Assembly (NCBI GenBank): GCA_964456475.1
Contig: CAYVZI010000006.1
Coordinates: forward strand, 7,074-71,073
Direction of reading: 5' to 3'
From: an uncultured Candidatus Saccharibacteria bacterium
Lineage (GTDB): Bacteria; Patescibacteriota; Minisyncoccia; Phycocordibacterales; UBA9973
DNA length: 64,000 nucleotides
Numbering within the stretch: the stretch's first letter is position 1; every line of letters begins with the position of its first letter. The notes beneath the pieces were generated by a model. It was not told where the DNA came from and ran no database searches. It worked only from the letters and a program-made list of their open reading frames with translations. The position numbers and the translations under genes were made by a program. Shown piece by piece: positions 1,971 to 52,169 of the stretch.

Positions 1971-2133
1971 GTCATTCCGGACTAGATCCGGAATCCATTA
2001 GAATTAATGAACTTAAATACAAACCTGGATTCCTTACAGGAACGGTATACCTTTCACATTTTGATTACAAAACGTTCAAGGTCTTGCGGAACGGTTCCCG
2101 ACCCTTTCCTCACCCGGACGAGCCGGGAATGAC
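1971..2133. repeat. Family-1 palindromic element. A plus copy GTCATTCCGGACTAGATCCGGAATCCAT sits at 1971-1998. A partner in inverted orientation (CCCGGACGAGCCGGGAATGAC) sits at 2111-2133, with small TTCCT..AGGAA hairpins between them.
   Basis: 7-bp inverted arms around a 5-bp spacer. Same consensus as copies at 9401, 9458, 19447/19489, 25808/25854 and 50631. Confidence 0.8.
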
Positions 2134-2146
2134 AGATTTTGTACTT

Positions 2147-5100
2147 TTATTTTTCTTCTTCTGTTTTCTTTCCTTGTTCGTCGCGCTTGTCTACGAATCC
2201 TGTTCCAGCTGGAATGAGGCGTCCGATGATCACGTTTTCCTTAAGTCCACGAAGTGTGTCTACTCCACCGCGAATCGCGTTGGTGATGAGCACGCGGTTT
2301 GTGTTTTGGAATGAAGCAGCTGAGAGCCATGACTTGGTCGTAAGTGCAGTTTCTGAGATACCAAGTACGAGTGATTCTGCTGTTGCTTCTGTGAGACCCT
2401 TGATCTTAAGTGATGCGTTCTCATCGAGAAGCTCAACTGCTTCCACGATTTCGCTTGGAGAAAATCCTGATTCACCAGCATCCTTGATCTTGCGACGTGA
2501 GAACATTTGGCGAATGATGATTTCGATGTGCTTGCGAGAAATTGATGCACCCTGGAGTTCGTACACTTTGTTGATTTCGTGAATGATGTATTCTTCTGCA
2601 CGCTCGCGACCTCCGTATTTGAAGATCTCGGCAATATCTGCAGAACCGTCTGTCATAAGATCACCCTTCTTCACATTGTCGCCCTTGGCAACGATTGCCT
2701 GGCGGTGTGGTGGTACATCGTATGTAGTTTCGTTTGCTTTGCCATCCACCTTTGTATCATGAAGGACGACGATTGAGCGTTCTGTTGCGTTGATGCGGAT
2801 ATCGATGACAGTTCCATCATCATGCGCAACAACTGCAGGATTCTTTGGAAGTCGGCGTTCGAAGATTTCTTCGACACGTGGAAGACCAGCCGTAATGTCG
2901 ACACCTGCGAGACCTCCGGCGTGGAAGGTTCGAAGTGTGAGCTGTGTTCCTGGTTCACCGATCGCTTGTGCAGCAACGATTCCAACCGCTTCTCCAACCT
3001 TGACCAAATCATTGCGTCCCAAGTCGAGACCGTAACAACTCTGACAGATTCCATACACTGTCTTACAAGTGAGTGGTGAACGAACGAAAGCTTCTGTGAT
3101 TCCAGCTTGTTCGAGTTTGAGCGCTTCTTCTTTTGAGATGAGATATCCACGCTTGTGAATCACATTACCATCCTTGTCTTTGAGATCAGCTGCGAGGATG
3201 CGTCCGCGGATTGTCTTACTGATTGGAATTTCAATACCAAGAACATTGTCCTTGTGCATGAGTTTTCCTTCTTTTGTTCCACAATCTTCTTCAGTGATAA
3301 CCACATCTTGTGCAACGTCAACGAGACGGCGAGTGAGGTATCCAGCTTTCGCAGTGTTGAGCGCTGTGTCGGCAAGACCTTTACGTGATCCGTGAGTACA
3401 GATGAAGTATTCAATCGGAGAAAATCCTTCCTTGAACGATGGGATGATTGGGAAATCAATCGTGCGTCCAGATGGGTTCACGATCATACCTTTCATTCCG
3501 GCCATCTGCGTGAGGTTTGAAACCGATCCGCGGGCTTTTGAAGTAATCATGTCGCTCGCTGAACTTCCATCCACCATTGTTTCTGGAATGAGCTTTTCGA
3601 TATCCTTCTTTACACCTTCCCAGATTTCGAGAACCTTGCGGTAACGCTCTTCTTCAGAGAGGAGACCTTCACCGTATTGCTCTTCGACTTCTTTTTGTTT
3701 TGCGCGTCCAGCAGCAACCACTGCAGGCTTACCTTCTGGAACCTTGATGTTGTCGATTCCCCATGAGATACCTGACTTTGTTGAGTACGTAAATCCGAAA
3801 TTCTTGATCTTGTCGAGAAGATCCGGAGTCGCGTCAATGCCGTAGTGCATGATGAATTCATCCACAAGAGTATTCAATCGTGTCTGTCCGATGACTTCGT
3901 TCAAATATGGGAAGTCGTCTGGAAGAATTGAGTTGAAGAGGATTCGTCCTACAGTCGTCTCAAATGGCTTGCCTTCGAACTTTGCATATTTTTCTTTTTC
4001 AGTTCCAAGGATAGTCACCTTTGCGCGAAGTGCGAGCTCATCGAATGAGTACGCAGTGATCGCCTGGTTTGGGCTACCGAACATTTTGCCTTCACCCTTT
4101 TGGTTTGGCATAAGTTTTGTCATCCAGAAACATCCAAGTGCCATATCCATACGTGGAGATGTGATTGGGTCACCGTTCTGAGGTTTCAAGAGGTTCTTGT
4201 TTGAAGCCATGCGTTCCTCAGCTTCCTGTTGAGCAGGTTTTGAAAGTGGAACGTACACAGCCATCTGGTCTCCGTCGAAGTCGGCGTTGAACGCTGGACA
4301 GACGAGTGGGTGAACCTGGATCGCATTTCCTTCGATAAGGATCGGCTGGAAAGCCTGAATACCGAGACGGTGAAGCGTCGGTGCACGGTTGAGGAGCACG
4401 CGCTTGCCTTTGATTTCTTCTTCAAGGATTGCCCACACTTCTGGAATTCCATCTTCAATGAGACGGTTTGCTCCACGAATGTTGTATGCGAGTTCTTGTG
4501 CGATAAGTTTTGAAATCACGAATGGACGGAAGAGTTCGAGTGCCATGTGTTTTGGAAGTCCACACTGAGAAAGTTTGAGTGTAGGACCGACCACGATAAC
4601 AGAACGTCCAGAGTAGTCCACGCGCTTTCCAAGCAAGTTCTGACGGAAGAGACCTTGTTTTGATTTCAAGTTGTCTGAAAGAGATTTGAGTGCACGGCGC
4701 TGTGCCTGGTTCATCGCAACAGAGTCGTTCTGACGAGCGATTGAGTTGTCGATGAGAGCATCCACAGCTTCCTGCAAGATACGCTTTTCGTTACGCAAGA
4801 TCACGTCTGGCGCACCGATTTCCTTGAGCTTGCGGAGACGGTTGTTTCGGTTGATCACGCGACGGTAAAGGTCGTTGATGTCAGATGTCGCATGACGTCC
4901 TCCTTCAAGAGCCACCATTGGGCGAAGTGCCGGCGGGATGACTGGGATGACGGTGAGGAACATCCATTCTGGACGAATGCCTGAAGTGATCATCGAACGA
5001 ATAAGCGATAGGCGCTTTTCGAGCTTGTCCTTTTCAACAGCACTTGCCTTCTCAGATGCAGCTTCTGAAATTTCCTGAAGCTTTTTAAGATCAAGATTTT

Positions 5101-5829: not shown

Positions 5830-8800
5830 CTATTCCTTATTAGCTTCATTAGTTTCTCGACCTGTGTACCCTTTCTGCAAATCAACATCGAGTGCAAGTC
5901 CTCGGAGGTAATTCAACATAACTGAGAATGATGCTGGTGTGTTTGGAACTGGGATTTCTTCGCCCTTGATGATCGCGTCGAATGCCTGTGAACGTCCCAT
6001 GATATCGTCAGATTTTACAGTGAGCATTTCGCGAAGTGTGTGCGATGCACCGTAACCTTCGAGAGCCCAGACTTCCATTTCTCCAAAACGCTGACCTCCA
6101 CCTTGAGCTTTACCTCCGAGTGGCTGTTGCGTGATGAGACTGTACGGACCAATCGAACGCATGTGAATCTTGTCTTCCACCATGTGGTGCAGTTTGAGCA
6201 TGTACATGATACCGACAGCTACATCTTGTTCGAATTTGTCTCCAGTACGTCCATCGTAAAGTGGAATAGATCCTGATTCTGGGAATCCAGCTTTGACGAG
6301 TTCTTCCTTGATTTCGAAATCGCGAGCTCCAGCAAATGGAGGTACGACTGCTTGGTAGCCGAGCGTGTTTGCCGCAAGACCCAAGTGCATTTCAAGAATC
6401 TGTCCGAGGTTCATACGAGATGGAACTCCAAGCGGTGTAAGGATCACGTCGACAGGAGTACCGTCCTGCATGAATGGCATTTCTTCTTGTGGAAGAATTG
6501 TTGAGATAACACCCTTGTTTCCGTGACGACCTGCGAGCTTATCACCCACAGACACGTTACGAAGCTGAGCAACTTCGATGACTACTTTCTTGATGATTCC
6601 TGATTCGAGCTGATGACCTTCGGCACGTGAAAAGATCTTCACGCCGATGATGCGTCCACGCTTTCCGTGTTCAAGACGAAGTGATGTGTCTTTCACATCG
6701 CGAGCCTTTTCCGCAAAGATAGATCGGAGCAAGCGCTCTTCTGGAGTAAGTTCTGTTTCGCCCTTTGGTGTGATCTTTCCAACAAGAATATCGTTCTCGC
6801 GGATTTCTGCACCGATGCGAATGATACCTTCTTCGTCGAGGTCTTTGAGTTTGACTTCACCGACGTTTGGAATATCGCGTGTAGTGATTTCTGGTCCGAG
6901 CTTTGTATCACGCACGACACAGATATATTCTTCCACATGAATCGATGTGAAGACTGAGTCTTTTACAAGACGGTCAGAAAGAATAATCGCATCTTCGTAG
7001 TTGCGTCCTGCCCATGACATAAATGCTACAAGCACGTTTTGTCCAAGCGCGATTTGTCCGTTGTCAGAAGATGACATGTCGGCAAGGAGTTGACCTTTCT
7101 TCACTTCCTGTCCTACAGAGACCACTGGTCGCTGATGGAATGAAGTAAAGTTGTTTGTACGTGAGAAGTTGATGAGTGTGTATTCCTTTGTTCCAGATTT
7201 GCCCTTGACCACGACTCGCTTTCCATCCATGTGAGTGACTGTTCCTGCTTCTTCAGCAAGTACGAGACGTCCAGAAAATGGAGCAGCCTTTTCTTCGATA
7301 CCGGTAGAGACGAGCGGAGCGTTTGGCACGAGACATGGAGTCGCCTGCTTCTGCATGTTTGATCCCATGAGTGCACGGTTCGCGTCATTGTGTTCAAGGA
7401 AAGGCACCATCGCAGTCGCGATTGAGAATGCCTGATATGGAACAACGTCGATGAAGTCGATTTCGTCGCGAGAGATGATACCTGGTTCTGTCTTGATACG
7501 AGCTTCAACTTCTGCATCGCGAAGCACACCCTTTTCATCTACTGGGTTTGCCGCGTGAGCGATGTTGTACTTTTCTTCTTCAAGCGCGTTTAGGTACACG
7601 ATTTCATTCGTGACTTTTCCTTTGACCACTTTCACGTATGGAGTTTCGATGATTCCGAAATCATTGATGCGTGCATATATAGAGAGGTGCAAGATAAGAC
7701 CGATGTTCGGACCTTCAGGAGTGTGGATCGGACAGACGCGACCGTAGTGAGAAGTGTGCACGTCACGCACTTCAAGACCTGCGCGTTCGCGTGTGAGACC
7801 GCCGGGTCCAAGAGCCGAAAGAATTCGGATGTGCTCGATTTCAGCCAAGAGGTTTTCCTGGTTCATAAATTGCGAGAGCTGGTTCGTGGTGAAGAATTCC
7901 TTGATACGAGCCTGCATCGGACGCTGGTTGATGATCTGGATCGGAAGTGCCGCCGCTGTATCTATAGTAGACATACGGTCTTGCACGTTACGCTTGATCT
8001 GAGTCATACCCACGCGGATTTTCTGCGCGAGAAGTTCTCCCACATAACGGACGCGACGCTGTGCAAGGTGGTCGATGTCGTCAGCCTTTGCTCCAGGTGT
8101 GTGCGTGAGTTCTACGATGTATTTTACAACTTGAATGAGGTCATCTTTTGAAATAGTTCGACGCTCAAGTTCCTTTTCGCCCATGTTGAGGTCGAAGCGC
8201 TTGTTGAATCGGAAACGTCCGACCGGTGAAAGGTCGTAGCGGTCTTTTGAAAAGAGTGCGGTGATAAATTCGCGTGCATTGTCTGCAGTCGCGAGATCAC
8301 CGTCACGAAGACGCTTGTACATTTCGATTGTTGCATCGCCAGGAGTCTTGGCAGTGTCTTTTGCAAGACATGTTGCAATGACGTTTGCTACGCGTTCGTC
8401 GTCGGCAAATGCAGCCTTGATTTCATCGTCAGTAGCCATTCCCATAGCACGAAGAAGAGACGTAATTGGGAATTTACGTTTTTTGTCGATACGCACGTAG
8501 ATCACGCCGTCAGCTTCAGCATCGATTTCAATCCAAACTCCGCGAGCTGGAATGATTTTTGCACCGAAATACATCTTGCCTTTGAGTTCGTTTTCTGTGA
8601 AGAAGATACCGAACGATCGTGCAAGCTGCGCGACGATAACGCGTTCAACACCGTTGATGATGAACGTACCGTGATTGGTCATGACTGGAATATCAGAAAG
8701 GAAGATTTCCTGTTCCTTTGCGACGCCACCGGCAAGCTTGTTCACAAGCTTCACGTTCACCTTAAGCGGTGCTTCGTAAGAAAGCTTGTTTTGCTTTGCA

Positions 8801-9111
8801 TGGAATTCATCACACTTCGGCTCGCCAAGCGAAAACGAAGTAAACTCAAGCTCGAATTTCTTGCCTGAGTAATCAGAAATAGGAGAAAATTCCTTAAAAA
8901 TTTCTCCGATGCCATTTTCGACCAAGTCTTTGAACGATTTGATTTGCATTTCCAGCAAATCAGGAAACTCTGCGAGTGATGCTTTGTACTTTTGGAAGTA
9001 CTTTTTTGGGCGGGGCCCGTTGGCATGTATCGACATATCGTTATTTTTAGAACACCCATATATAGTGCATTTCTTTGTTGCTTCGCTCGTTTGTTCCCGC
9101 AATGTACCCAA
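5830..9111 (-). CDS. rpoB: DNA-directed RNA polymerase subunit beta
   Basis: 1093 aa. Conserved beta-subunit blocks (GEMEVWALEGYGA, NMQRQAVPL-like region). Confidence 0.95.
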   Translation of the reverse strand: MGTLREQTSEATKKCTIYGCSKNNDMSIHANGPRPKKYFQKYKASLAEFPDLLEMQIKSFKDLVENGIGEIFKEFSPISDYSGKKFELEFTSFSLGEPKCDEFHAKQNKLSYEAPLKVNVKLVNKLAGGVAKEQEIFLSDIPVMTNHGTFIINGVERVIVAQLARSFGIFFTENELKGKMYFGAKIIPARGVWIEIDAEADGVIYVRIDKKRKFPITSLLRAMGMATDDEIKAAFADDERVANVIATCLAKDTAKTPGDATIEMYKRLRDGDLATADNAREFITALFSKDRYDLSPVGRFRFNKRFDLNMGEKELERRTISKDDLIQVVKYIVELTHTPGAKADDIDHLAQRRVRYVGELLAQKIRVGMTQIKRNVQDRMSTIDTAAALPIQIINQRPMQARIKEFFTTNQLSQFMNQENLLAEIEHIRILSALGPGGLTRERAGLEVRDVHTSHYGRVCPIHTPEGPNIGLILHLSIYARINDFGIIETPYVKVVKGKVTNEIVYLNALEEEKYNIAHAANPVDEKGVLRDAEVEARIKTEPGIISRDEIDFIDVVPYQAFSIATAMVPFLEHNDANRALMGSNMQKQATPCLVPNAPLVSTGIEEKAAPFSGRLVLAEEAGTVTHMDGKRVVVKGKSGTKEYTLINFSRTNNFTSFHQRPVVSVGQEVKKGQLLADMSSSDNGQIALGQNVLVAFMSWAGRNYEDAIILSDRLVKDSVFTSIHVEEYICVVRDTKLGPEITTRDIPNVGEVKLKDLDEEGIIRIGAEIRENDILVGKITPKGETELTPEERLLRSIFAEKARDVKDTSLRLEHGKRGRIIGVKIFSRAEGHQLESGIIKKVVIEVAQLRNVSVGDKLAGRHGNKGVISTILPQEEMPFMQDGTPVDVILTPLGVPSRMNLGQILEMHLGLAANTLGYQAVVPPFAGARDFEIKEELVKAGFPESGSIPLYDGRTGDKFEQDVAVGIMYMLKLHHMVEDKIHMRSIGPYSLITQQPLGGKAQGGGQRFGEMEVWALEGYGASHTLREMLTVKSDDIMGRSQAFDAIIKGEEIPVPNTPASFSVMLNYLRGLALDVDLQKGYTGRETNEANKE

Positions 9112-9400
9112 TGTACATTTTGGTCACAAGCCTCGCTCGCGCCTCGAACTGCATCTATCTATGTGTATTCTTTTTTATGGTTTCCAAAATAACAGATAAA
9201 GAAAGCAAAACCCATCTCTTTCGTTAGAGTTTGCTTTATCCGTCTTATATTTTTTTGACCGACAGCTTGGGGAGCTGTGTTTAGCTGCTAAAGGCTACGA
9301 ATAACAACTAAAACTCAATCAGTCCGTAGTGCAAATAGTCTACTTATTTTTCACCTTGTGTCAAGTGAAAAACGGGGCATTCTTCCCCTCCGCGTATCGT

Positions 9401-9484
9401 GTCATCCCGGACTTGATCCGGGATCCATTTTTTGGGCCTTTTTCCCCTCCTTTTCAGGTCATTCCCGGCCTGGCCGGGAAATCC
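9401..9484 (+). repeat. Two family-1 palindromic elements in tandem orientation: 9401-9428 GTCATCCCGGACTTGATCCGGGATCCAT and 9458-9484 GTCATTCCCGGCCTGGCCGGGAAATCC.
   Basis: Perfect 7-8 bp inverted arms. They generate the spurious ORF 9329-9535 (VIPDLIRDP / VIPGLAGKS). Confidence 0.8.
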
Positions 9485-9497
9485 AAGCCCCGAGTCC

Positions 9498-9532
9498 AAA
9501 CGGCTCATTTCCGCCCACTTGAGCCGTTTAAC
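9498..9532 (+). repeat. Family-2 hairpin element AAACGGCTCATTTCCGCCCACTTGAGCCGTTTAAC
   Basis: 10-bp stem AAACGGCTCA/TGAGCCGTTT with 12-nt loop. A near-identical copy is at 13523-13557 and a disrupted copy at 14834-14896. Confidence 0.8.
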
Positions 9533-9588
9533 TAAAAAGCCCTTAACCACTTTTCTGCTTTACTTTTTATCGCTGAATTTCTTTTCAA

Positions 9589-9782: not shown

Positions 9783-10454
9783 ATGGAAACAACAGCAAGT
9801 CTCGCGCAATTCCATAAACTTATGGGTCTTATTTTAAGTAAGTACCCTGAACTTGAAGGAAAGCTGGACAAACAAATGTTACAATTACTCATCAAAGACG
9901 ACTCGCGTCTCGCTCATGAGTTCACATTGTTTATTAACAATGGAGGAATGCACAACCTAAGTCACGTAATTAATTGTGACAAAACCCCAGAACTATTCCA
10001 TCCTGATGATGGTTATTATCTTAAGGGTCATCAAAAACATAGTCCGTTTGCCTGGAACCCAAATCAAATTGAGTTAATCCCTCTTTTTTCATTCTGGGAG
10101 GGATTAAATAATCAACAGGAATTTCAGAGTAACAGGATGCGGTATGAGTTTTTGAAAAAATACGATGCATGTAATGCAAACATTTCAGACTACCTCTACG
10201 AACACCCCTACTTGTTTCCAAGTAAATGGGATAATCATCTCCTTGTCTTTTTAGGTACGCAATATGGCAGGCTGTATGGAGGAAAAAAGAACAATGGTTG
10301 TTGGGTTAGATGTATTGGCAAAGATTATGATGGCAGGTTACCAGGGAGAGCACTGGCATACTTTAAAAATGTAACCTCACACTCTTTTAAATATCCCCTA
10401 GGGAATAAATTTAAAAATAATGATGTGATGGTTCCTGTTTTCAAAAAAATATAA
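9783..10454 (+). CDS. Hypothetical protein, island cargo, no recognisable domain
   Basis: 223-aa ORF, AT-rich. Followed by a hairpin terminator (CAGTGTGATC..GATCACACTG+T-run, 10459-10500). Confidence 0.5.
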   Translation: METTASLAQFHKLMGLILSKYPELEGKLDKQMLQLLIKDDSRLAHEFTLFINNGGMHNLSHVINCDKTPELFHPDDGYYLKGHQKHSPFAWNPNQIELIPLFSFWEGLNNQQEFQSNRMRYEFLKKYDACNANISDYLYEHPYLFPSKWDNHLLVFLGTQYGRLYGGKKNNGCWVRCIGKDYDGRLPGRALAYFKNVTSHSFKYPLGNKFKNNDVMVPVFKKI

Positions 10455-10507
10455 AACACCAAGACAAGCCAAACAGTGTGATCTCATTTGATCACACTGT
10501 TTTTATT

Positions 10508-10540
10508 TTAAATTCACAAGCTGACCGTCTGGGACGATGT
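10508..10540 (+). repeat. Island direct repeat copy 2: CAAGCTGACCGTCTGGGACGATGTTGGAACC
   Basis: See 9589-9620. Lies between convergent gene ends. Confidence 0.7.
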
Positions 10541-10570
10541 TGGAACCTTTTTAAACCAAAGACCTACGAC

Positions 10571-11212
10571 CTAACTCTGTTTACTCTTGTTTTCATCAGC
10601 CTTTTTATTAAACCTTTCTATTACATCACGAACAACATCTTCAGAGAACAAAGAACGCATATCCACTATATATCTATAGTCCTCTTTAATATACTCAGTT
10701 CCCTTATAGTTTTCTATATAAACTTCGACTCTCTCTCTTAGTAATTTTTTAATAACGCTCTCTGGCGCCGAAAAGAATCGCTGCTCATCCAAATATTTTT
10801 CTTCTTGAATAAGAGCATCTTCAGATAAAATCGTCGGATCTGTAACCCTTAATTCTATACCTCCAGGAATTCTATAAACTGGGATAACTTCGAAGCGCTC
10901 TACTTTCTTTATATTCAAAGTAAATTTCGGACGTTTGTGTCTTTTTAACATCGAGTAAGTTAGTGTCCAATTATCCCCATCCCATGCTCCATGCTTTTCT
11001 ACAAGATCCTTAAGTATTGGCTCAAGTTTCCAAAAATCCTCTTCCTGAACATAAATGTCTATATCTTGATTCTCTCTTATATATTTTCCATTTATCCCGG
11101 CTACTCCAACACCTCCAAATACCCAGTATTTGATTCCAGCATTAGAGATTGCGGGCAACACGTCTTCAAAAACCGGCCCTAAATGTTCATTGATTTTTTG
11201 TGTAGTTTCCAT
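10571..11212 (-). CDS. Nucleotidyltransferase-fold protein, Lnu(A)/LinA-ANT(2'')-like (NTase_2 family)
   Basis: 213 aa. YWVFGGVGVAGINGKYIRENQDIDIYV matches the Lnu/ANT(2'') hG[GS]...DxD pattern (compare LinA YWLDGGWGVDVL...RDIDI). It is co-directional with the OLD nuclease and 183 bp downstream of it. Confidence 0.6.
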   Translation of the reverse strand: METTQKINEHLGPVFEDVLPAISNAGIKYWVFGGVGVAGINGKYIRENQDIDIYVQEEDFWKLEPILKDLVEKHGAWDGDNWTLTYSMLKRHKRPKFTLNIKKVERFEVIPVYRIPGGIELRVTDPTILSEDALIQEEKYLDEQRFFSAPESVIKKLLRERVEVYIENYKGTEYIKEDYRYIVDMRSLFSEDVVRDVIERFNKKADENKSKQS

Positions 11213-11274
11213 TTTCTGAATAGTGATTTATTTCAAAAATAATACTTCTTAATAACTTAATTATACCAAACTTA

Positions 11275-11306
11275 CAAGCTGTGCAGTTTGGGACAAAGTT
11301 AGAATT
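11275..11306 (+). repeat. Island direct repeat copy 3: CAAGCTGTGCAGTTTGGGACAAAGTTAGAAT
   Basis: See 9589-9620. Lies between the OLD gene end and the NTase start. Confidence 0.65.
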
Positions 11307-11394
11307 TTATTTAGCCTATAATCATGTTCTCTTGGTAGCTTTATGCACCTCTGGTATCCCAAAGAATTAATTAAGGTTTCTTCATTTTAATCAG

Positions 11395-13338
11395 TTAAAC
11401 TTTTTCTTTCGCTGCAAGAACTTTTAATGTTTCGTTGACCTTATTAATATACGTATAATAGGTATCAGCTATATTTTCTATCGTCAAATTTGTGAGCAAA
11501 GCATCTTTTAATTCACCAATAAGTGCTTCCCCCTCAATCTGAGTAATTGAATTTCTTTTATACCAACCTCGGACGCTTTCAATACGGCCTTTTGCATCAT
11601 TAATATCAGCAGCTAAAAATTCTGGTTTTGAATTTTTATCAGTTGTATTTTTCAATTGTTGCAAGAAATAATTTTCTTCAAAGAAGTCTTCCGCTGTATA
11701 TACAGCGTTGAAACTAGGGTCGAAATCGTGATAGGTGTACCAAAAACCATAGCCTTTATTATTTTCATACTCACGTTTTTTGTCTTTAGCAATGGCATCC
11801 GCATCACTTAATATTAAGCAATTACGATTTCCTGCTTCAAACGCTGGTGTGATGTTTTGTATATGCTTAACACCCTGAGAATGACAGAATCCAAATTTTT
11901 CCAATTCTTTAAAAACTTTCTTTCTTGTAGGAAGAGTTGTTTTAGAGGCTCGAAAAAATAAATCTTTATCTCTCCATCCTTCGAATATAAGATTCCATTC
12001 TTTTAGATTTGAAAATATGGAGTAACCCAGAGATTTATATATAACCTCTTCATCTTGAATGTTTGAATCTCCCACTACTTCAAGTTTTGTAATTTCTTTT
12101 TTCTTTTTCACCAAGTAGTGTCGTGCTATAACTTTCTCGTCGATCATAAAAATCGAATGAGTAGAAAAGAGGACAACATTTGTTTGAGAAATTTTTAAAA
12201 GTTCGTCTCTCAAAAACCTTACTCCTGTTGGATGTAAACTTATCTCCGGTTCATCAATGATCAAAACGGAATTTTGTAGTGTGTTTATGTTGCTTTGAGT
12301 AGAGATAAGAAGCAAAAAAGTAATAAATCTCTTGAATCCGTCACTTCTTTGATTTAATTCATAATTATTGTCGGAATCTTTTACCGTAGCAACTATATCA
12401 GAACCGTCGGTTTTTAATTCAAAAGAAACTTCGGGATACTCCTCCCAAACTTGTTTGAAATACTCAGTATTTTTATCAGCAACCTTTCTGAGAAAATTTG
12501 ATAATCGAGTTTGAGAAATCCCCTTTGCTGTATTAACTTCATTAGCGATTCGTGCATTTTCTATGCCGGCAAGATTAAACATTCTTGCTAAAGGAATACA
12601 GGTTGTGGGGTCACTTATAAAACCATCCAAAGGTATTCTAGAAGGTAGTAAGTAAGATTCGTTGTACTCCCAATATATAACATCAGGTAACCACTCCTCT
12701 ACTTTTTCAATGTGAATATTCCCCAGCGTTTCTTGAATATCCGAGAGATCTTTAACATCCACTAAATAAGCTGGGTCAATAGGATTAAATTCATCTAAAT
12801 TAACAAATTGGTAGCCTGAAAGCTTAAACGTCTCCCCTGACTTCGAGACTACTTCATAGTCTCCGGGGCAAGTATCAGAAACTTTTTTCAAGTTATTTAA
12901 AACTTTGTATTCTTTTCCTAGAACAAAATAGCGTGCACTTCTTTTTTGTGTAAGTAAATCAATATGATAGACCGCCTCAATCCTTGTTTTACAAAAATCT
13001 TCAATATTCAGCCCCTTACCGTTGTGAGAAATAACAGGAACATCCTTTATAAAAAGAAAATTTTCTTTAAAGTCTGCCACAATCTCATCTAAGTCTCCCT
13101 TCTCAAAAGAAAAAATGAATTTTACGTAAGCGACACTAGGAACATCTTCGCTAGATAATACTTCTCGAACATATTTTTTTTCAACTTTCTGCGTTGCGTC
13201 TAGAAGTTTTACAGCTTTTAAAATATTACTCTTACCAGACTCATTTATTCCCACTAAAACACGACAGGTAGGATTAAATTCAACCGCCGCATCTTTTATA
13301 GATAAAAAATTCTTAATTTCGGCTTTTTTAAGCTTCAT
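11395..13338 (-). CDS. OLD-family ATP-dependent endonuclease (ABC-type ATPase + C-terminal Toprim), class-1 OLD or GajA-like
   Basis: 647 aa. Walker A GINESGKSNILKA at the N-terminus. Walker B/D-loop LIIDEPEISLHPTGVRFL. C-terminal Toprim signature IFEGWRDKDLF ... CLILSDADAIAKD (conserved E and DxD). Confidence 0.8.
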   Translation of the reverse strand: MKLKKAEIKNFLSIKDAAVEFNPTCRVLVGINESGKSNILKAVKLLDATQKVEKKYVREVLSSEDVPSVAYVKFIFSFEKGDLDEIVADFKENFLFIKDVPVISHNGKGLNIEDFCKTRIEAVYHIDLLTQKRSARYFVLGKEYKVLNNLKKVSDTCPGDYEVVSKSGETFKLSGYQFVNLDEFNPIDPAYLVDVKDLSDIQETLGNIHIEKVEEWLPDVIYWEYNESYLLPSRIPLDGFISDPTTCIPLARMFNLAGIENARIANEVNTAKGISQTRLSNFLRKVADKNTEYFKQVWEEYPEVSFELKTDGSDIVATVKDSDNNYELNQRSDGFKRFITFLLLISTQSNINTLQNSVLIIDEPEISLHPTGVRFLRDELLKISQTNVVLFSTHSIFMIDEKVIARHYLVKKKKEITKLEVVGDSNIQDEEVIYKSLGYSIFSNLKEWNLIFEGWRDKDLFFRASKTTLPTRKKVFKELEKFGFCHSQGVKHIQNITPAFEAGNRNCLILSDADAIAKDKKREYENNKGYGFWYTYHDFDPSFNAVYTAEDFFEENYFLQQLKNTTDKNSKPEFLAADINDAKGRIESVRGWYKRNSITQIEGEALIGELKDALLTNLTIENIADTYYTYINKVNETLKVLAAKEKV

Positions 13339-13522
13339 GCTGTTAAAAGTAGCATTTATTGATGAGGGTGTCTACAGCATCCAAAGGATCAATTTTGATC
13401 AAAAAAGTTAAAATATTTCTATAGGAAAAATGGGGTCAGGTACCATTCTTGAATTCGAACTTGATTGACACTCTAGCACCCCAAGCTTACTCCTCCCCTC
13501 CCAAAACGCAAATCCCAAACCC

Positions 13523-13557
13523 AAACGGCTCATTTCCGCCCATTTGAGCCGTTTGAC
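13523..13557 (+). repeat. Family-2 hairpin element AAACGGCTCATTTCCGCCCATTTGAGCCGTTTGAC
   Basis: Direct copy of 9498-9532. The two bracket the 9.5-13.5 kb island. Confidence 0.8.
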
Positions 13558-13680
13558 TACTTGACAATATATGAAAATGTTATAAGGTTTGCAAAAGACT
13601 AAATAAACAGCAAAGCGTCTAAGGAATTGGATTTTTTGCTGTTTATTTAGTTTTCACCATTTAAAAAATAATGTTAATTT

Positions 13681-14394
13681 ATGGGCAAATTGATCCGCAC
13701 CCAGGTCGTTTACGAACACAAGCCTGGTAACTTAAAACAGTCGGTTAAGCTTCGGCTCCCAATCATCATTCACTCCAGCAAAGCTGGCCCTGTAATTATT
13801 ATCAATTATCCGGGGTACAACGGAGACATTGATGGGTACAACATGAAGTACGCTGTTATGGCAACGCGCATGAGCGAACAAATTGGCACCGTGATCCGTA
13901 TTGGTAATCACCATCATTCAAACACCAATTACCAGGAAACAGTGCAGGATGATCTGCGTGCAATCGTTACGCATGCCTTAGAAAACGCAAAAGAGATATG
14001 CGGACACGAAAATCCTCATATTTACATAACTGCATTTTCTGCTGGTGCTTCTGCTGCCGCAGCTATCGCTCATGAGTTTCCTCAGGTAACAAAACTCCTG
14101 CTCATATCCCCCTCATTTGATGCGGGAGAAAGTGCAATACGGAGCGGCCTTGAAAAATACACCGGCGAAATACATATCCTGGCAGGAGCAAATGATGATG
14201 TTGTAGGACCAGAAGTAGCACCGCTTATGAATGGGATGGTAAAGCTAACTGCTTCACAAATGGTAATACTTCCAAAATGCGACCATCAGTTGCGTGGACG
14301 CACTAACGGATTGTATTTAAGCAACGCACCAGGCTGGGCGTTCTTAGGAAAGAAATTCCCCACTACCGACGACGGCATTGTGCTGTACGAGTAG
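13681..14394 (+). CDS. Alpha/beta-hydrolase fold protein (esterase/dienelactone-hydrolase-like)
   Basis: 237 aa. Nucleophile-elbow-like ITAFSAGAS, acid GANDD, C-terminal CDHQL histidine. Hairpin terminator at 14421-14452. Confidence 0.55.
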   Translation: MGKLIRTQVVYEHKPGNLKQSVKLRLPIIIHSSKAGPVIIINYPGYNGDIDGYNMKYAVMATRMSEQIGTVIRIGNHHHSNTNYQETVQDDLRAIVTHALENAKEICGHENPHIYITAFSAGASAAAAIAHEFPQVTKLLLISPSFDAGESAIRSGLEKYTGEIHILAGANDDVVGPEVAPLMNGMVKLTASQMVILPKCDHQLRGRTNGLYLSNAPGWAFLGKKFPTTDDGIVLYE

Positions 14395-18745: not shown

Positions 18746-19432
18746 TTACAATTTTGATTTAGCCTTCCACTCATCTATCTTCTTTGGATCACCAGAGAGA
18801 AGGACTGGCGGAACTTTATATTTTTTATTTTTGTATTCCAAAATTTCCGGTCGAGTATAAAATTCGCTTGATGAGACGCGCTCTTCTTCGAGTGAGTCAA
18901 ATTTGCCGAGCACACCAGGAATCTGACGCGAGATTGAATCGATCAACACCATAGCCGGCAATTCCCCACCCGTGAGCACATAGTCTCCGATTGAGATATC
19001 CTCTGCTTTCAAAATCTTCGCCACACGCGCATCAATCCCTTCATAGCGCCCACAGAGCATAATAATATCGGTGTATTTCTTGGCTGAAGTCTTAGCGTAT
19101 GCAGTCGTGAATTTTTCCCCACTTGGGCTAAAACTAATTATTTTTGTCTTTGTATTCTTTCGTTTGGCAATTTTCTTCACAACGCTTTCAACCGCCTTGA
19201 GCACAGGCTCTGCACGAATAATCATTCCTGGTCCGCCACCATACGGTTTGTCGTCGACAATGCGAGACACGTTCCCATCCGGCCAGACTTTCTTGAATTT
19301 ACCCGATACAAAATTGCGCGGGTTCGTAAACGTCACCTGAATCCGCTTTTCCTTGATCGCCCGCCCAATAATAGACTCCTTGAGATAGGAATCGAAACTT
19401 TCAGGAAATAATGTAATGATATGAAATCGCAT
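18746..19432 (-). CDS. trmD: tRNA (guanine37-N1)-methyltransferase
   Basis: 228 aa. DDKPYGGGPGMII, CGRYEGIDARV, VLTGGELPAMVLIDSISR motifs. Confidence 0.9.
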   Translation of the reverse strand: MRFHIITLFPESFDSYLKESIIGRAIKEKRIQVTFTNPRNFVSGKFKKVWPDGNVSRIVDDKPYGGGPGMIIRAEPVLKAVESVVKKIAKRKNTKTKIISFSPSGEKFTTAYAKTSAKKYTDIIMLCGRYEGIDARVAKILKAEDISIGDYVLTGGELPAMVLIDSISRQIPGVLGKFDSLEEERVSSSEFYTRPEILEYKNKKYKVPPVLLSGDPKKIDEWKAKSKL

Positions 19433-19446
19433 GAAATTTTTGTATT

Positions 19447-19515
19447 GTCATGCCGGACTACGATCCGGCATCCATTATGAATTTTTCGTGGATCCCGGAT
19501 CAAGTCCAGGATGAC
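19447..19515. repeat. Family-1 palindromic element pair (MITE-like): 19447-19475 GTCATGCCGGACTACGATCCGGCATCCAT and an inverted partner at 19489-19515.
   Basis: Two hairpins in opposite orientation, 13 bp apart, in the trmD/Nudix intergenic region. Confidence 0.8.
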
Positions 19516-19520
19516 ACAGT

Positions 19521-19985
19521 TTACTCTGGTTTGATATCTGAAGAAGCAATACTCTTGCCCTCATCAGCAAAATGAATATTGCCTGAAAACTTCTCTTCAC
19601 GCAAGAAGTACGGATACCAGAGCGGATCATCAATCCACATACTCTCAAACGGAGGCTTCTCGATATCAAACCATTCCGGTTTCATTTCTTCTGTCTCAAT
19701 CGGCTCCCCTTCAAATGAATCAACGCGATAAATAATCACTCGTTGATTGAACTCAGGCTTGTCATCAAAATAAAAATTGATACATCCGAGCTTGATGAGA
19801 TTTTGTTCTGGAACAATAATTCCGCTTTCTTCTTGAATTTCGCGAACAACGGCCTGCTCAGGAGATTCTCCTTCCTGTAATTTACCTCCGTACCCATTCC
19901 ACTTCCCTGCACCAAACCCCCGCTTCTTCATACCGAGCAAAATCTTTCCGTCTCTCACAAGAATGGCTAGAGTTACAATTCGCAT
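19521..19985 (-). CDS. Nudix hydrolase
   Basis: 154 aa. Nudix box GGKLQEGESPEQAVVREIQEESGI. Confidence 0.85.
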   Translation of the reverse strand: MRIVTLAILVRDGKILLGMKKRGFGAGKWNGYGGKLQEGESPEQAVVREIQEESGIIVPEQNLIKLGCINFYFDDKPEFNQRVIIYRVDSFEGEPIETEEMKPEWFDIEKPPFESMWIDDPLWYPYFLREEKFSGNIHFADEGKSIASSDIKPE

Positions 19986-25795: not shown

Positions 25796-25807
25796 AAATG
25801 TTTCTGT

Positions 25808-25882
25808 GTCATCCCGGACTCCGATCCGGGATCCATGATTTTCTTAATTAGTAATGGATTCCGGCTCGTAGGCCGGAATGAC
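25808..25882. repeat. Family-1 palindromic element pair: 25808-25836 GTCATCCCGGACTCCGATCCGGGATCCAT and an inverted partner at 25854-25882 (ATGGATTCCGGCTCGTAGGCCGGAATGAC).
   Basis: MITE-like composite just upstream of typA. Confidence 0.8.
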
Positions 25883-26017
25883 AGCCCCTAGATAAAAATA
25901 AAGCCTCTAAACCGGTCGTACCGGTCGGGCGAACAAAATATCTCCGTTGCCGGAGATTTTGTTTTAGCCGCCAGGGCTAATTACCTTTTCAATATAACAC
26001 TATTTTTCAAAAAAGGC

Positions 26018-28307: not shown

Positions 28308-28439
28308 AATTGTTAATTGAGAGGTGAAAAGATATTTTGTTCACTCTATAACATCAGTGCAAAAAGTCAACTTAGTGTATAAAAAATTCCCGCTTGGAGT
28401 ACAAGCGGGAATAAGAATAAAAGATAAAAAGAAAAAGTC

Positions 28440-29216: not shown

Positions 29217-29328
29217 GATTTAAAGCTTTTGATATGATTGTTAGAGAAAAAATTATCGTTTGTATTATATACCTATATTGACAAAAAGTCAATACCGTAT
29301 TGTATATTGATAAATAACCCATTAATCC

Positions 29329-30040: not shown

Positions 30041-30063
30041 ATAATGGTATAGTAGGCGTATGA
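29371..30063 (+). CDS. Y1 HUH transposase (IS200-like TnpA / RAYT)
   Basis: 230 aa. HFYHIYNRG, HUH motif MPNHFHLI, GSLFQGTFKSKHI. Stop overlaps the RNase R start (ATGA). Confidence 0.7.
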   Translation: MRKAPLVEEHFYHIYNRGVDKRKVFESKKDYSRFLYNLYLSNSTQAFNLSDLIKYQESKELIFSLPREDELVSIHAYSLMPNHFHLIISQKKEKGISLFMQKLTTAYTMYFNKKSNRSGSLFQGTFKSKHIASDDYLRYLFAYVHANSFSTIEGEISEKNIEKVLNYEYSSILDYQDIIRPENSIVRTDFFEKEFTNKDGLIEQLKAWLSYHQHPEVKPQDIQNNGIVGV

Positions 30064-32140: not shown

Positions 32141-32292
32141 TCGAGTTCATCAAGTCTATAAAGTTTATAAAGTTAAAAGTCATACGAATGCAATTTCTTC
32201 CCCGCCTGTACACAGGAGGGGGTGGCCGGTACTCCGGACGGGGTGGTTCCTAAACTTTATAAACTTTACGAACTTTATAAACTTTTAACTTT
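32141..32292 (+). repeat. Family-3 A/T-rich AACTTTATAAACTT repeats in inverted orientation (32150-32180 vs 32251-32292) flanking a ~52-nt GC-rich structured core (32199-32250). The whole unit is MITE-like or a small structured RNA.
   Basis: AAGTTTATAAAGTT on the left and (AACTTTATAAACTT)x3 on the right. The core TTCCCCGCCTGTACACAGGAGGGGGTGGCCGGTACTCCGGACGGGGTGGTTCC has nested hairpins CCTGT/ACAGG and CCGG/CCGG. Confidence 0.55.
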
Positions 32293-34624: not shown

Positions 34625-34911
34625 TGCTTAGATATTTAATTGTGATGGCCTACTTTTGTGTATTGGGCTCAGCCGTGATCCCGTTCAGCGACCAAGCGTA
34701 TATCTTAGTCATTAAACGGGACCTACAATTAAACGGATTTCAAAGATCTCAACTACTTATATTATATCATATAATATACCATACTGTCAATAGCTATAAA
34801 AAGCCCTATTATAAGGGTTTACTAACGCAAGACTGCCCGCCAAAGGCGGGCAGTCTTGCAACTTTATGAACTATATAACTTTCAACTTTCAAAATAATTT
34901 TGTAACCAAAA

Positions 34912-38385: not shown

Positions 38386-38470
38386 TAAAAGTTTATAAAG
38401 TTCTTAAAGTTTATAAAGTGAAATTCAACAATGCGTGCCTGTATAGACTTTATGAACTTTCAACTTTATA
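38386..38470 (+). repeat. Family-3 repeat pair: (AGTTTATAAAGT)x2 then the inverted (ACTTTATRAACTT)x2 around a 25-bp core
   Basis: Read directly, between rnc and the nusB-Nudix gene. Confidence 0.55.
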
Positions 38471-38481
38471 AACTTGATGAA

Positions 38482-50215: not shown

Positions 50216-50324
50216 GATTTTGAATAAAGATTAAAAAGCCCTTGTAATGTAAGGATAAAACACCTATTTCGTATAGGAGAATTATATCATATATTAGCTC
50301 GAAAAACGAGGGAAAAGCTAGAGT

Positions 50325-52169
50325 TTAACGCACCGTCCAGCCCTTATTTTGCAAGGCTTTTGTGATGTTTTCCATTACCCCGGTCACATCTGCATCAGCG
50401 AGCGTTCGTTCATGGGATTGGAATACAAGTCGGACCGCGAGAGATGTTTTTTCATCCTTAGTGAATTGATCAAAAAGTTGTGGTTCACGAATAAGGAGTG
50501 CCGTTCCCTCTTTTTTACAAAGGTCGATAAGTTCATCCGCATTTGTTCCTACTGGGACCCAAACTGCAACGTCGCGAGAAATAAATGGATACTGACTCCA
50601 TGGCGTGAATTTTTTATCTCTCACCACTATGTCATTCCGGACTTGATCCGGGATCCATGATGAAATTTCTTTCGTGAATTCTTCAAGCGTCGCTTCAACA
50701 ACCCCCTTCTTATCAGCATACGCAATATGAATTTCTTCCCTAAACGCGTTAGCGTCGGGCGATCCAGCTTCACTGGATTTAGCCACACCAGCTTCGGGAA
50801 ACACAGTCCCAATTTCAAAAATTTTTGTTTCGTCATTACCAAGTAGTGGTGCATTCAAGCGATTGAGTTCATATGAATCCTTGAGTCCGTCGGCAAGATT
50901 CGTTCGGAGAAATTCTTTGCCTTTTGCACCGCGCGAGACTTCCACCTTTCCCTTTTTGGTAAATGTATACGTCATCACTTCACTATAGCCATCGCTGAGC
51001 AACTTCTCGCGTGCTGCACTCACACGTGCTTGCGTATCATTTGCCTTCGATTCAAATGCAATTTTCGGAATAGTTGGAACTACTTTGTCATACCCCATAA
51101 TGCGTCCAATTTCTTCTACCATATCGTGAGGACCAGTGAGGTCGAGTCGCCATGCAGGTACGGTGATGCGAATCTGACTATTGTCGATTGCATATTCAAA
51201 TGCGTAGCGTTTCAAAATATCTTCAATATCAAGGAGTGAAATTTCCATACCAAGCTTCTTGCTTACATCACTCACAGAAAATTCCAAGGTTTGTACTTCT
51301 TGTGGACTCGGATACACGTCAACAACATCTTCAAACTGCGCCTCGGGACACATTTCGAGAATAAGCGCGGAAAGTTCGCGCATGGCATACGGAGCAAGTT
51401 CGGGTGTAAGATCATTTTCAAAACGCTTTGCCGCATCAGAAATAAGACCAAGGCGTCGCGCGGTGCGACGCACAGATGTAGGATCGAAGTTCGCCACCTC
51501 AAGTATGATCTCTGTTGTATCATCTGAAATTCCAGAATTCGTTCCACCTTTCACGCCGGCGATCGCGAGCGATTTCTGACCATCAGTGATCATCATGTCG
51601 ACCTCCTTGAGTTTGGCGACAATCTTTTCTCCTCCGACGGTTTCAAATTCCTCACCATCTTTTGCGGAACCAATCACAATTTTTTCTCCGGCGAGTTTCT
51701 TGAGGTCGAATGCGTGTGTTGGCTGACCAGTGTTCCAAAGCACGATGTTCGTTGCATCAACAATATTGTTAATTGATTTCTGTCCAATCGATTCAAGATG
51801 CTTCACTACCCATTCCGGAGAAGGACCAACCTTTACTCCTCGAACGATGCGTCCCATATAACGACGGCAAGCAGGATTTGCAATTTCAATCGCAAGATTT
51901 CCAGGCTTCGATTCAGGAATTTTATACATCGGCGTTGGATCAACGTATTTGATGCCAAGCTGACCCGAAAGTTCACGAGCAACACCAAGATGACCTAGCA
52001 AATCATGTGCTCGATTTGGAAGAATGTTCAAATCATAAAGTGTGTCTCCATCAGGAAGCGTATCAACCGACTCAACTTCGCAGAGATGCAGAGTAAAAAC
52101 ATCTGCCAGTTTTTCTGCAGTTGAAATTTCAGGAACATACCATTTGAGCCAGTTATATGAGATTTTCAT
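50325..52169 (-). CDS. pheT: Phenylalanyl-tRNA synthetase beta subunit (short form) carrying an in-frame family-1 palindromic element
   Basis: 614 aa. MKISYNWLKWYVPEI N-terminus. B3/4 and B5 domains. Residues SWIPDQVRNDIV are encoded by the repeat at 50631-50658. Confidence 0.85.
   Translation of the reverse strand: MKISYNWLKWYVPEISTAEKLADVFTLHLCEVESVDTLPDGDTLYDLNILPNRAHDLLGHLGVARELSGQLGIKYVDPTPMYKIPESKPGNLAIEIANPACRRYMGRIVRGVKVGPSPEWVVKHLESIGQKSINNIVDATNIVLWNTGQPTHAFDLKKLAGEKIVIGSAKDGEEFETVGGEKIVAKLKEVDMMITDGQKSLAIAGVKGGTNSGISDDTTEIILEVANFDPTSVRRTARRLGLISDAAKRFENDLTPELAPYAMRELSALILEMCPEAQFEDVVDVYPSPQEVQTLEFSVSDVSKKLGMEISLLDIEDILKRYAFEYAIDNSQIRITVPAWRLDLTGPHDMVEEIGRIMGYDKVVPTIPKIAFESKANDTQARVSAAREKLLSDGYSEVMTYTFTKKGKVEVSRGAKGKEFLRTNLADGLKDSYELNRLNAPLLGNDETKIFEIGTVFPEAGVAKSSEAGSPDANAFREEIHIAYADKKGVVEATLEEFTKEISSWIPDQVRNDIVVRDKKFTPWSQYPFISRDVAVWVPVGTNADELIDLCKKEGTALLIREPQLFDQFTKDEKTSLAVRLVFQSHERTLADADVTGVMENITKALQNKGWTVR
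50631..50658 (+). repeat. Family-1 palindromic element GTCATTCCGGACTTGATCCGGGATCCAT inside the pheT coding sequence (in-frame)
   Basis: Identical consensus to the intergenic copies. The reading frame is preserved. Confidence 0.8.

Follow-up and report, generated by a model that had tools for sequence, protein, structure and literature searches.

A 64-kb stretch of DNA (hereafter, the window) from a genome of the Patescibacteria (CPR) lineage carries a dispersed hairpin, here called Family-1, that is probably a population of CGTC-tagged repetitive extragenic palindromes (REPs) and thereby of the same hairpin class as the NTS or Ssn-related motif (SRM) of Chenal et al. The repeated hairpin is 28 bases long, and its unit can be written as (T)GTC–ATNCCGGA–loop of 5-6 nt–TCCGGNAT–CCAT. 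Family-1 is under selection, with strong covariation in its stem and an invariant tag and tail. Specifically, across 16 copies from the window and its relatives, 100% of the stem cells were paired, the first and second stem pairs were A-U and U-A in every copy, and double compensatory changes were present at five of the eight pairs, a level reached by none of 500 shuffles. In the same 16 copies, GTC and the C directly after the stem never varied, and GTCAT and TCCA were invariant in the alignment. Within the window, the 5' tag was TGTC in eight of nine copies and GGTC in one, and a CCA tail followed the stem in eight of nine, this tail being invariant in the alignment of window and relatives. 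As ssDNA, the hairpins fold at -7 to -9 kcal/mol (z about -3.5).

This anatomy differs in several respects from that given in an initial annotation of the window. The 3' arm of the consensus was written there as GTCCGGRAT, in place of ATCCGGRAT, and the literal consensus had zero matches in the window, even with three mismatches allowed; the corrected pattern, GTCATNCCGG-N6-9-CCGGNATCCA, had six exact matches, against 0.00 expected from 100 shuffles. The inverted repeat, given as 7 bp, is an 8-bp stem (ATNCCGGA/TCCGGNAT), while the 5-bp spacer holds for four copies, with loops of 6 nt in three others and of 3 nt in one, the copy at 9458.

A covariance-model search with filters off identified seven strong copies (45-55 bits), one moderate copy and one degenerate remnant, distributed over five loci, and no other Family-1 copies in the 64-kb window. 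A related hairpin was present at every position where one had been reported, and the density of about one locus per 10 kb was borne out (five loci in 48.7 kb). Three of the five loci have inverted pairs, one has a direct pair, and the last is a copy in frame within pheT. The window had no tRNA or Rfam matches, which means that the copies are not flanks of RNA genes, an alternative that the initial annotation had raised.

In the rpoC-dnaG spacer, a plus-strand hairpin at 1970-1998 (TGTC-ATTCCGGA-ctaga-TCCGGAAT-CCAT; 51.7 bits; ssDNA fold -7.6 kcal/mol, z -3.8) sits upstream of dnaG (182-1957, minus strand), 12-13 nt from its start. The inverted partner claimed for it at 2111-2133 is a degenerate remnant only (2111-2134, minus strand; 8.8 bits, E about 5), directly following the rpoC stop, which retains TGTCATTCCCGG but has a weak fold, a stem down to about 5 bp and no CCA tail. 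The pair at 9401/9458, which lies upstream of rpoB (5830-9111, minus strand) at a distance of about 290 nt, is a direct tandem rather than an inverted one. Its first member, at 9400-9428 (plus strand; TGTC-ATCCCGGA-cttga-TCCGGGAT-CCAT; 52.9 bits), borders an island that is variable and low in GC, judging by composition, and its second, at 9457-9486 (plus strand; GGTC-ATTCCCGGCC-tg-GGCCGGGAAAT-CCAA), is the moderate copy, a variant with a differing stem and a short loop (9455-9489 in the covariance-model search; 19.9 bits, E 0.003).

Next to trmD (18746-19432, minus strand), the proximal arm of an inverted dimer, at 19446-19475 (plus strand; TGTC-ATGCCGGA-ctacga-TCCGGCAT-CCAT; 48.1 bits), ends 13-14 nt before the start codon, and the second arm, at 19488-19516 (minus strand; TGTC-ATCCTGGA-cttga-TCCGGGAT-CCAC, with one G-T pair; 48.9 bits), starts 5 nt after the stop of a NUDIX gene (19521-19985, minus strand); as RNA, this dimer (19446-19516) could form a long hairpin of -40.7 kcal/mol. 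The typA leader holds a second dimer, whose proximal arm, at 25807-25836 (plus strand; TGTC-ATCCCGGA-ctccga-TCCGGGAT-CCAT; 54.5 bits), lies 12 nt before the typA start (24008-25795, minus strand) and is separated by 17 nt from the other arm, at 25854-25883 (minus strand; TGTC-ATTCCGGC-ctacga-GCCGGAAT-CCAT; 45.4 bits). Conserved in relatives, a promoter-like site (26019-25991, minus strand) lies upstream of this dimer. Finally, the intragenic hairpin at 50630-50658 (plus strand; TGTC-ATTCCGGA-cttga-TCCGGGAT-CCAT, with one T-G pair; 52.7 bits) is located in pheT (50325-52169), in the hypervariable linker that precedes the FDX-ACB domain, where its minus strand is translated in frame as W-I-P-D-Q-V-R-N-D. 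Thus, the inverted pairs of the initial annotation stand at 19447/19515 and 25808/25882, with spacers of 12-17 nt, whereas that at 1971/2133 is inverted over a spacer of 112 nt and has a decayed second arm.

Comparison with related loci revealed that occupancy differs in both directions. The typA leader, which holds a dimer in the window, is empty in L122, L123 and L124; at the NusB-rnc and SMC-downstream junctions, it is L122 that has copies and the window that has none; and the pheT linker holds a copy in the window, in P0121 and in L128 and lacks one in L129 and others. That close relatives have occupied and empty sites both ways indicates that the copies are independent, recently dynamic insertions, as the initial annotation had supposed. 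Its term "MITE-like" is loosely apt: the inverted arms are there, but the sole clean empty site, at typA, has no target-site duplication (GGGGCT|dimer|ACAGAA versus ACGG|ACATAT). Further dimers were present in L122, L123 and L117. Beyond these relatives, the same element was found at at least 120 genome loci from many phyla, including four matches in other CPR lineages, where it forms dimers or clusters. Complementary variable positions and palindromic interiors characterized 145 of 151 matches, many of them in inverted pairs, and one locus (L102) has the published hairpin-GIY-YIG-hairpin arrangement.

Each unit is thus a short hairpin formed on ssDNA, in which the 5' (T)GTC tag and the CCA tail are unpaired, the stem has 8 bp and starts A-T, T-A, and the loop is 5-6 nt long. 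Units are dispersed singly or as tag-outward inverted dimers; they occupy leaders and short spacers of core genes and, in one case, a tolerant protein linker. By analogy with published systems, a mechanism can be proposed. GTC and the C that follows the stem, both invariant, may be the determinants read by a small GIY-YIG ssDNA endonuclease (Ssn), which would bind the hairpin on one strand only and cut just upstream of it. If the Ssn gene were itself, as is typical, bracketed by hairpins in the manner of a small insertion sequence, those dispersed elsewhere would be non-autonomous satellites of it. Their level of action would be DNA, with ssDNA being marked or cut in the course of uptake, replication or recombination. 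Most copies are located in transcribed leaders or intercistronic spacers and so must also appear in mRNA as stable hairpins, which we take to be a tolerated side effect and not the reason for their existence.

The literature pairs CGTC REPs with GIY-YIG Ssn nucleases, and a genome with an Ssn system has a small GIY-YIG gene with a single domain (cd10448), usually with the motif on its flanks (Chenal 2025, PMC11893778). No GIY-YIG or Ssn gene was found in the window, either by Pfam scans of essentially all ORFs of at least 100 aa, with inspection of small gap ORFs, or by single-sequence tblastn and a 106-sequence Ssn profile with all filters off, nor in about 150 kb of related CPR loci, the profile being a narrow one (Rhizobiaceae-type) and the search spanning the 64-kb window and related CPR loci. 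With no Ssn gene in the window, we infer from the analogy that the partner of Family-1 in this genome is an Ssn-type enzyme. The same result could be read as a sign that the copies are orphan relics, i.e., leftovers of a past expansion or horizontal acquisition in a reduced genome that lacks an active partner enzyme, maintained neutrally or through gene conversion between copies. Decay in the remnant at 2111-2134 and divergence of the copy at 9457-9486, degenerate tandem copies in L126, and the 19% of SRM-rich genomes for which the literature reports no detectable Ssn would all fit such relics. Nevertheless, we regard this reading as improbable, given that seven copies are near perfect, that their stems are 100% paired, and that the window represents about 6% of a genome estimated at roughly 1 Mb. 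Further, genomes whose TypA proteins are 94-95% identical differ in occupancy both ways, and this speaks for recent gain or loss.

The window does encode another candidate enzyme, a Y1_Tnp protein (29371-30063) with HUH and catalytic-tyrosine motifs, and the inverted doublets are similar to REPINs, such that this IS200-like tyrosine transposase might mobilize the hairpins and doublets as non-autonomous REPIN/RAYT elements. This idea is very improbable and largely refuted. The association with a RAYT gene, which the initial annotation had suggested checking, fails at the gene itself, where the closest Family-1 copies are 3.5 kb and 20 kb away, and among the relatives of the Y1 protein, where none of 80 loci (348 kb) holds a credible Family-1 hairpin. 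Instead, the Y1 gene is bracketed by a distinct palindrome (apex GAGGT-nnn-ACCTC; 29328-29356 and 30013-30031), which occurs nowhere else in the window, and the same palindrome type flanks its relatives on both sides. Conversely, L122 and L123 have Family-1 copies and lack a Y1 gene in the syntenic region examined. With the NCBIfam RAYT model, the Y1 protein reaches 41 bits, where the cutoff is 80, and CGTC REPs never flank tyrosine transposase genes (Di Nocera 2013, PMC3733652).

A role in RNA is similarly suggested by position, since most copies are transcribed, lying between or ahead of same-strand genes, and transcription has been argued for many REPs (Di Nocera, PMC3733652). Host RNA elements of this kind would act in mRNA on stability, on processing (e.g., by RNase III on the ~30-bp dimer stem) or on translation start. 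The outer end of the element is 12-15 nt from the start codons of dnaG, trmD and typA, and likewise of trmD in L123 and rnc in L122; dimers as RNA fold at -37 to -41 kcal/mol; and the typA dimer sits between the conserved promoter-like site and the AUG. We nonetheless consider such a role unlikely. The element is missing at the same essential genes of 94-95% identical relatives and is therefore dispensable, hairpins occur in both orientations, one copy is within the coding linker of pheT, and the published partner enzyme leaves RNA untouched (PMC11893778). What is invariant is the tag and the tail, both unpaired and on one strand, a pattern that fits DNA being recognized by a protein and not an RNA stem alone, and the 12-15 nt spacing could have arisen through insertion into spacers that were originally about 20 nt long (in L124, 7 nt separate the upstream stop from the trmD start). 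No T-tract is available for termination: on the coding (minus) strand, ACAG or ACAA follows the hairpins in place of a T-run, and an intrinsic terminator was rejected. No Shine-Dalgarno sequence was found ahead of dnaG, trmD, typA or rnc. A combined scenario has a similarly slim chance of being correct, namely, that the hairpins propagate without a canonical Ssn, by a different or externally supplied enzyme, and additionally serve, through co-option, as leader structures located 12-15 nt ahead of the dnaG, trmD, typA and rnc starts, kept by compensatory change even in pheT.

The reading of Family-1 as a CGTC-tagged REP population draws on its likeness to several known systems, and the analogy of the initial annotation to REP/BIME and Rickettsia palindromic elements was right in this regard and closer than had been supposed, as Rickettsia RPE-4/-6 have already been placed in the CGTC-tagged REP superfamily, of which Neisseria dRS3 is also a member (PMC3733652). 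REPIN-RAYT elements of Pseudomonas and the REP/BIME of Escherichia coli share with Family-1 short tagged hairpins, inverted doublets, intergenic location and dispersal within a genome, but they have a GTAG tag, where Family-1 has GTC (TGTC), and a cognate RAYT gene that has those REPs on its flanks, neither of which was found for Family-1. Rickettsia RPE-4/-6, whose sequences were compared by description only, occur in frame in protein-coding genes, as does the pheT copy, although that is the only intragenic Family-1 copy seen.

CGTC-tagged REPs as a superfamily are defined by a CGTC tag (often TGTC or CCTC), a stem of 8-9 bp with A-T at the first two positions, a loop of 4-5 nt and a short unpaired CCA tail, and they occur mostly as inverted dimers, with some intragenic (PMC3733652). 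Family-1 likewise has a C/TGTC tag, an AT-initiated 8-bp stem, a CCA tail, inverted dimers and an intragenic unit; its loops are 5-6 nt as opposed to the published 4-5 nt, and its host belongs to the Patescibacteria, which are not among the five host phyla given in Di Nocera 2013. The closest type is CGTC-2 (8-bp stem, 5-nt loop), an assignment made by published stem and loop lengths and not by consensus (PMC3733652). The published SRM string, HGTCWY N0-2 YYVSBRH N0-5 WNVSBRG N0-2 RNCYNB, is matched exactly by three of the nine window copies, and the others depart from it at one or two degenerate positions.

The most detailed parallel is with the Neisseria NTS, CGTCATTCCCGCGMAVGCGGGAATCYRG (Chenal et al. 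2025, PMC11893778). The NTS/SRM hairpin is the target of small GIY-YIG Ssn nucleases, which cleave it strand-specifically, as ssDNA, and do not cut dsDNA or RNA. For SsnA, the position that matters most to binding is the C immediately following the palindrome, and cleavage depends on the 3 nt preceding it; the mechanism by which SRM hairpins spread has, according to the discussion of that work, been demonstrated in no organism (PMC11893778). The Neisseria NTS has its ssnA partner, a gene absent from the 64-kb window of Family-1, and a role in natural transformation, which for Family-1 is a candidate role only. The stem core is CCCGCG in NTS and CCGG-based in Family-1. In both, copies adjoin genes that vary between strains, and NTS/dRS3 and Family-1 have the same architecture and identical outer parts, (C/T)GTCAT…stem…ATCC, with the positions critical to SsnA, the 3 nt upstream and the C after the stem, invariant in Family-1. 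This is a known cross-phylum repeat family, here in a Patescibacteria bacterium with a tiny genome.

Our results revealed that the Family-1 repeats of this window are a real feature and belong to an already described class. Read from the copies at their coordinates, the unit consists of (T)GTC, ATNCCGGA, a loop of 5-6 nt, TCCGGNAT, and CCAT. The consensus first proposed gave zero matches in the window as written, even with three mismatches allowed, and its 3' arm should read ATCCGGRAT, not GTCCGGRAT; the corrected pattern yielded six exact matches, against 0.00 expected from shuffles. Further, the stem is longer than the 7-bp inverted repeat of the initial annotation: folded as ssDNA, eight of nine sequences form an 8-bp hairpin (about -7 to -9 kcal/mol), while the copy inside pheT, with a T-G pair, folds at -5.2 kcal/mol and the 2133 remnant has a 5-bp stem only. 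A covariance model built from 16 clean copies (from the window and its relatives) and run with filters off over the whole window recovered seven strong copies (45-55 bits), a moderate one (9455-9489, 19.9 bits), and none besides these and the 2111-2133 remnant. Because the latter scores only 8.8 bits, the supposed inverted partner at 2111-2133 is a decayed remnant. The claim that copies often occur as inverted pairs stands for two tight dimers with outward tags (19446-19516 and 25807-25883) and for one loose pair with a decayed arm (1970-2134), but not for 9400-9486, which is a direct tandem; 50630-50658 is a single copy.

In all three singletons the + strand is the one that bears the tag, and most of the window has negative GC skew, although three copies are too small a sample for judging orientation relative to replication. 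Half-sites (TGTCATNCC) that lack the hairpin number six in addition to the real copies, against 1.8 expected. The orientation of G-T versus C-A mismatches, as a test of the folding strand, offered two cases in the window, which is too sparse, and six mismatched matches from the genome scan had no orientation bias. The suspicion that copies might be flanks of tRNA or other RNA genes found no footing, as a tRNA scan and an Rfam search (gathering threshold) returned no features in the window. A reading of the unit as a mini-ORF (ATG…TGA, minus strand) was dropped because several copies lose the frame through changes in loop length. At 9329-9550, each strand has a 68-aa ORF that simply translates the tandem hairpins (…RVIPDLIRDP…, …WIPDQVRDD…); annotation pipelines could list the two as hypothetical proteins, and knowledge of Family-1 prevents such spurious calls. 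The hairpin ATTCCCGCTTG… (28386-28412) resembles Family-1 but has neither tag nor tail; on the minus strand a T-run comes after it, and we read it as an ordinary terminator.

The copies lie within a run of core genes, mainly on the minus strand (dnaG, rpoC, rpoB, trmD, typA, S16, rnr, smc, rnc, nusB, rnhB, dnaE, thrS, gyrB, pheT, pheS, and mur ligases), whose TypA and PheT homologs place the host in the Patescibacteria; among named organisms, Candidatus Pacebacteria has the most similar TypA (89% identity). Specifically, they occupy the rpoC-dnaG and NUDIX-trmD spacers, the typA leader, the interior of pheT, and a site upstream of rpoB that borders a low-GC island; in the two spacers and the leader, 12-14 nt separate the start codon of the downstream gene from the nearest tag end. 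The island (9783-14394; 34-36% GC versus about 44% elsewhere) starts beside the tandem hairpins at 9400-9486 and encodes an OLD-family ATPase-Toprim protein (11395-13338; PADLOC Old, 99 bits), a nucleotidyltransferase (10571-11212), and an uncharacterized 223-aa protein; in two relatives (L124 and L125), the SWIB-rpoB gap is about 1.5 kb and holds none of these genes. Amid the mur genes, the interval 60466-62269 comprises a gene for a 383-aa reverse transcriptase (Pfam RVT_1, 80.8 bits; PADLOC generic RT, 175 bits) and, immediately upstream of the gene, a 650-nt stretch lacking a convincing ORF (61618-62269); the protein could be a retron-like or defense-type enzyme. The mur cluster of another comparison locus (L129) has a Cupin-like ORF and no reverse transcriptase. 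In the relative with 89% TypA identity (L124, 16114-16816; L125, 10178-10870), trmD is called in two pieces of 101 and 79 aa, for which a frameshift, an assembly error, or decay to a pseudogene could account.

Relatives with 94-95% identical TypA retain the same gene order with different hairpin occupancy, and close relatives form a compact natural set of sites with and without the hairpin. The typA leader holds a 75-bp dimer in the window and is empty or different in three close relatives (L122, L123, and L124). Conversely, L122 carries dimers at NusB-rnc and downstream of smc, where the window has none. The NUDIX-trmD spacer is occupied in both the window and L123, with differing stem variants and spacers, and has other content in L122, L124, and L126; the pheT linker is occupied in the window, a homolog (P0121), and a more distant locus (L128), and empty in L129 and most homologs. 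Occupancy differs both ways, and the copies are therefore independent insertions. On both sides of the typA-leader insertion, a promoter-like site, a small hairpin, and an ATCTA(C/G)GG stretch are kept, and no target duplication is visible there. Gene content also varies among relatives at the copy-bearing junctions KH-typA, NUDIX-trmD, and upstream of rpoB.

Compared with L122, L123, and L124, the typA leader is further extended by an insertion of about 62 nt (25900-25965), unrelated to Family-1 and containing a hairpin (AAAACAAAATCTCCG-GCAA-CGGAGATATTTTGTT) and a direct repeat (CGACCGGT). A second dispersed family comprises AAGTTYATA arrays with a 9-bp period (14 matches versus 0.23 expected), often as two inverted arrays within one intergenic region (27331-27361, 32152-32173, 32254-32284, 34861-34873, 38389-38419, and 38447-38475); such arrays lie at NusB-rnc and downstream of smc, where L122 has the hairpin dimers instead.

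The pheT copy sits in a hypervariable linker ahead of the FDX-ACB domain, reads in frame as WIPDQVRND, and is shared with a 96% identical homolog. A 69% identical PheT homolog (L128) carries a copy at the identical codon position, and its stem (ATCCTGAA/TTCAGGAT) is fully compensated. One occupied site lies in an essential aminoacyl-tRNA synthetase gene, where the stem has been remodeled through compensatory changes. The same gene has a 15-codon insertion at 50730-50780 (AGVAKSSEAGSPDAN), missing from eight aligned homologs, including one that is 96% identical; this insertion, which is not a Family-1 copy, includes at the DNA level a direct repeat that is imperfect (GAAGCTGGTGTGGC / GAAGCTGGATCGCC) as well as a short inverted repeat (ATCCAG/CTGGAT).

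An association with the Y1 transposase gene of the window (29371-30063), proposed as a RAYT link, did not hold up. The 230-aa, IS200-like protein has a Y1_Tnp domain (35 bits) with HUH and tyrosine motifs, scores 41 bits against the NCBI RAYT model (cutoff 80), and has a bracketing palindrome of its own (apex GAGGT-nnn-ACCTC; 29328-29356 and 30013-30031), of which the window has only these two copies. The first hairpin (29328-29356) reads CACATCTTGAGGT-tta-ACCTCAAGATGTG; the second, an imperfect copy at about 30008-30036, lies inside the 3' coding end of the gene, making 29328-30063 a self-contained hairpin-Y1-hairpin unit. The stop codon of the Y1 gene and the start codon of rnr overlap (ATGA). 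Relatives of the protein (39-59% identity) came from 80 loci in a metagenome scan, many of them flanked on both sides by RAGGT-nnn-ACCTY palindromes, and no credible Family-1 hairpin occurs in these 80 loci (348 kb). Family-1-bearing relatives, in turn, lack a Y1 gene beside rnr (L122, L123, and L126 have none there). Because of this distinct palindrome, the Family-1-free relative loci, and the Y1-less Family-1 relatives, the two systems are separate. Di Nocera et al. 2013 (PMC3733652) report that CGTC-tagged REPs, unlike GTAG REPs, never flank tyrosine transposase genes.

Scanning 596 Gb (one genome per species) with the corrected pattern yielded at least 120 loci, and the matches listed include Alpha-, Beta-, Gamma-, and Deltaproteobacteria, Chloroflexota, Planctomycetota, Bacteroidota, Ignavibacteria, Cloacimonadota, Campylobacterota, and four CPR lineages. 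With 18 fixed bases, some tens of chance matches are expected by rough estimate. Among the matches listed, however, the variable positions are complementary and the interior is palindromic in 145 of 151, and many are arranged as inverted pairs with 20-100 bp between the members; the cross-phylum matches are therefore the same element and not chance. The hairpin pattern is also common in IMG/VR, with at least 120 contig stretches classed as viral or prophage, some of which have pairs or as many as four copies (L203); these stretches may be host flanks, prophages, or true phage DNA. Their existence may help to explain the occurrence of such similar hairpins in distant phyla.

In our preferred reading, the Family-1 copies are recently dynamic, DNA-level hairpins of the CGTC/SRM class, most likely serviced by an Ssn-type nuclease (a small GIY-YIG ssDNA nuclease) whose gene lies in another part of the genome. 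A Pfam search of essentially all ORFs of at least 100 aa, inspection of small gap ORFs, a motif regex, tblastn, and a 106-sequence profile detected no GIY-YIG gene in the window, and none turned up in the related CPR loci; the same profile, which is narrow, had no match in 1.08 Mb of viral loci, which is uninformative. As the window covers little of the genome, we draw the Ssn step from the literature and the pattern of invariant positions. That the copies are leftovers without an active partner enzyme seems unlikely to us. Alternatively, the hairpins could act in mRNA, where the dimers would fold strongly in leaders, but Family-1 is dispensable in near-identical relatives, and we regard such an RNA role as a secondary and rather improbable possibility. 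CPR organisms are thought to depend on taken-up DNA. An Ssn gene in the full genome would make these organisms a minimal setting in which to study the system's role; a genome without one would challenge the idea that repeat maintenance requires Ssn.

The analogy to REP and Rickettsia palindromic elements in the initial annotation is borne out, as Family-1 falls in the class described by Di Nocera et al. 2013 (PMC3733652) as CGTC-tagged REPs, which have a CGTC (often TGTC) tag, an 8-9 bp stem with A-T pairs first, a 4-5 nt loop, and a CCA tail, occur mainly as inverted dimers, are sometimes intragenic, and include Rickettsia RPE-4/-6 and Neisseria dRS3. A full-text literature search with the peptide translations PAFAGMT, SRFRGND, and SGFRRND gave no match. 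Chenal et al. 2025 (PMC11893778) identified the hairpin (in Neisseria the NTS, CGTCATTCCCGCGMAVGCGGGAATCYRG; in generalized form the SRM) as the specific ssDNA target of SsnA, a 94-aa GIY-YIG nuclease whose gene the hairpins usually bracket and which does not act on dsDNA, RNA, or the opposite strand. This recently explained class now extends to the CPR, as the Patescibacteria are a new host group relative to both papers. In the 16-copy alignment, compensatory double changes affect five of eight stem pairs and all 128 of 128 cells are paired (0 of 500 shuffles were as good). SsnA binding depends most on the C after the stem and cleavage on the three bases before it (Chenal et al. 2025), and these flanks are exactly the positions that are invariant in the Family-1 alignment. 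Further, in a Ciceribacter locus (L102), two hairpins enclose a GIY-YIG gene of 95 aa (Pfam, 59.5 bits), the same order as published for ssnA.
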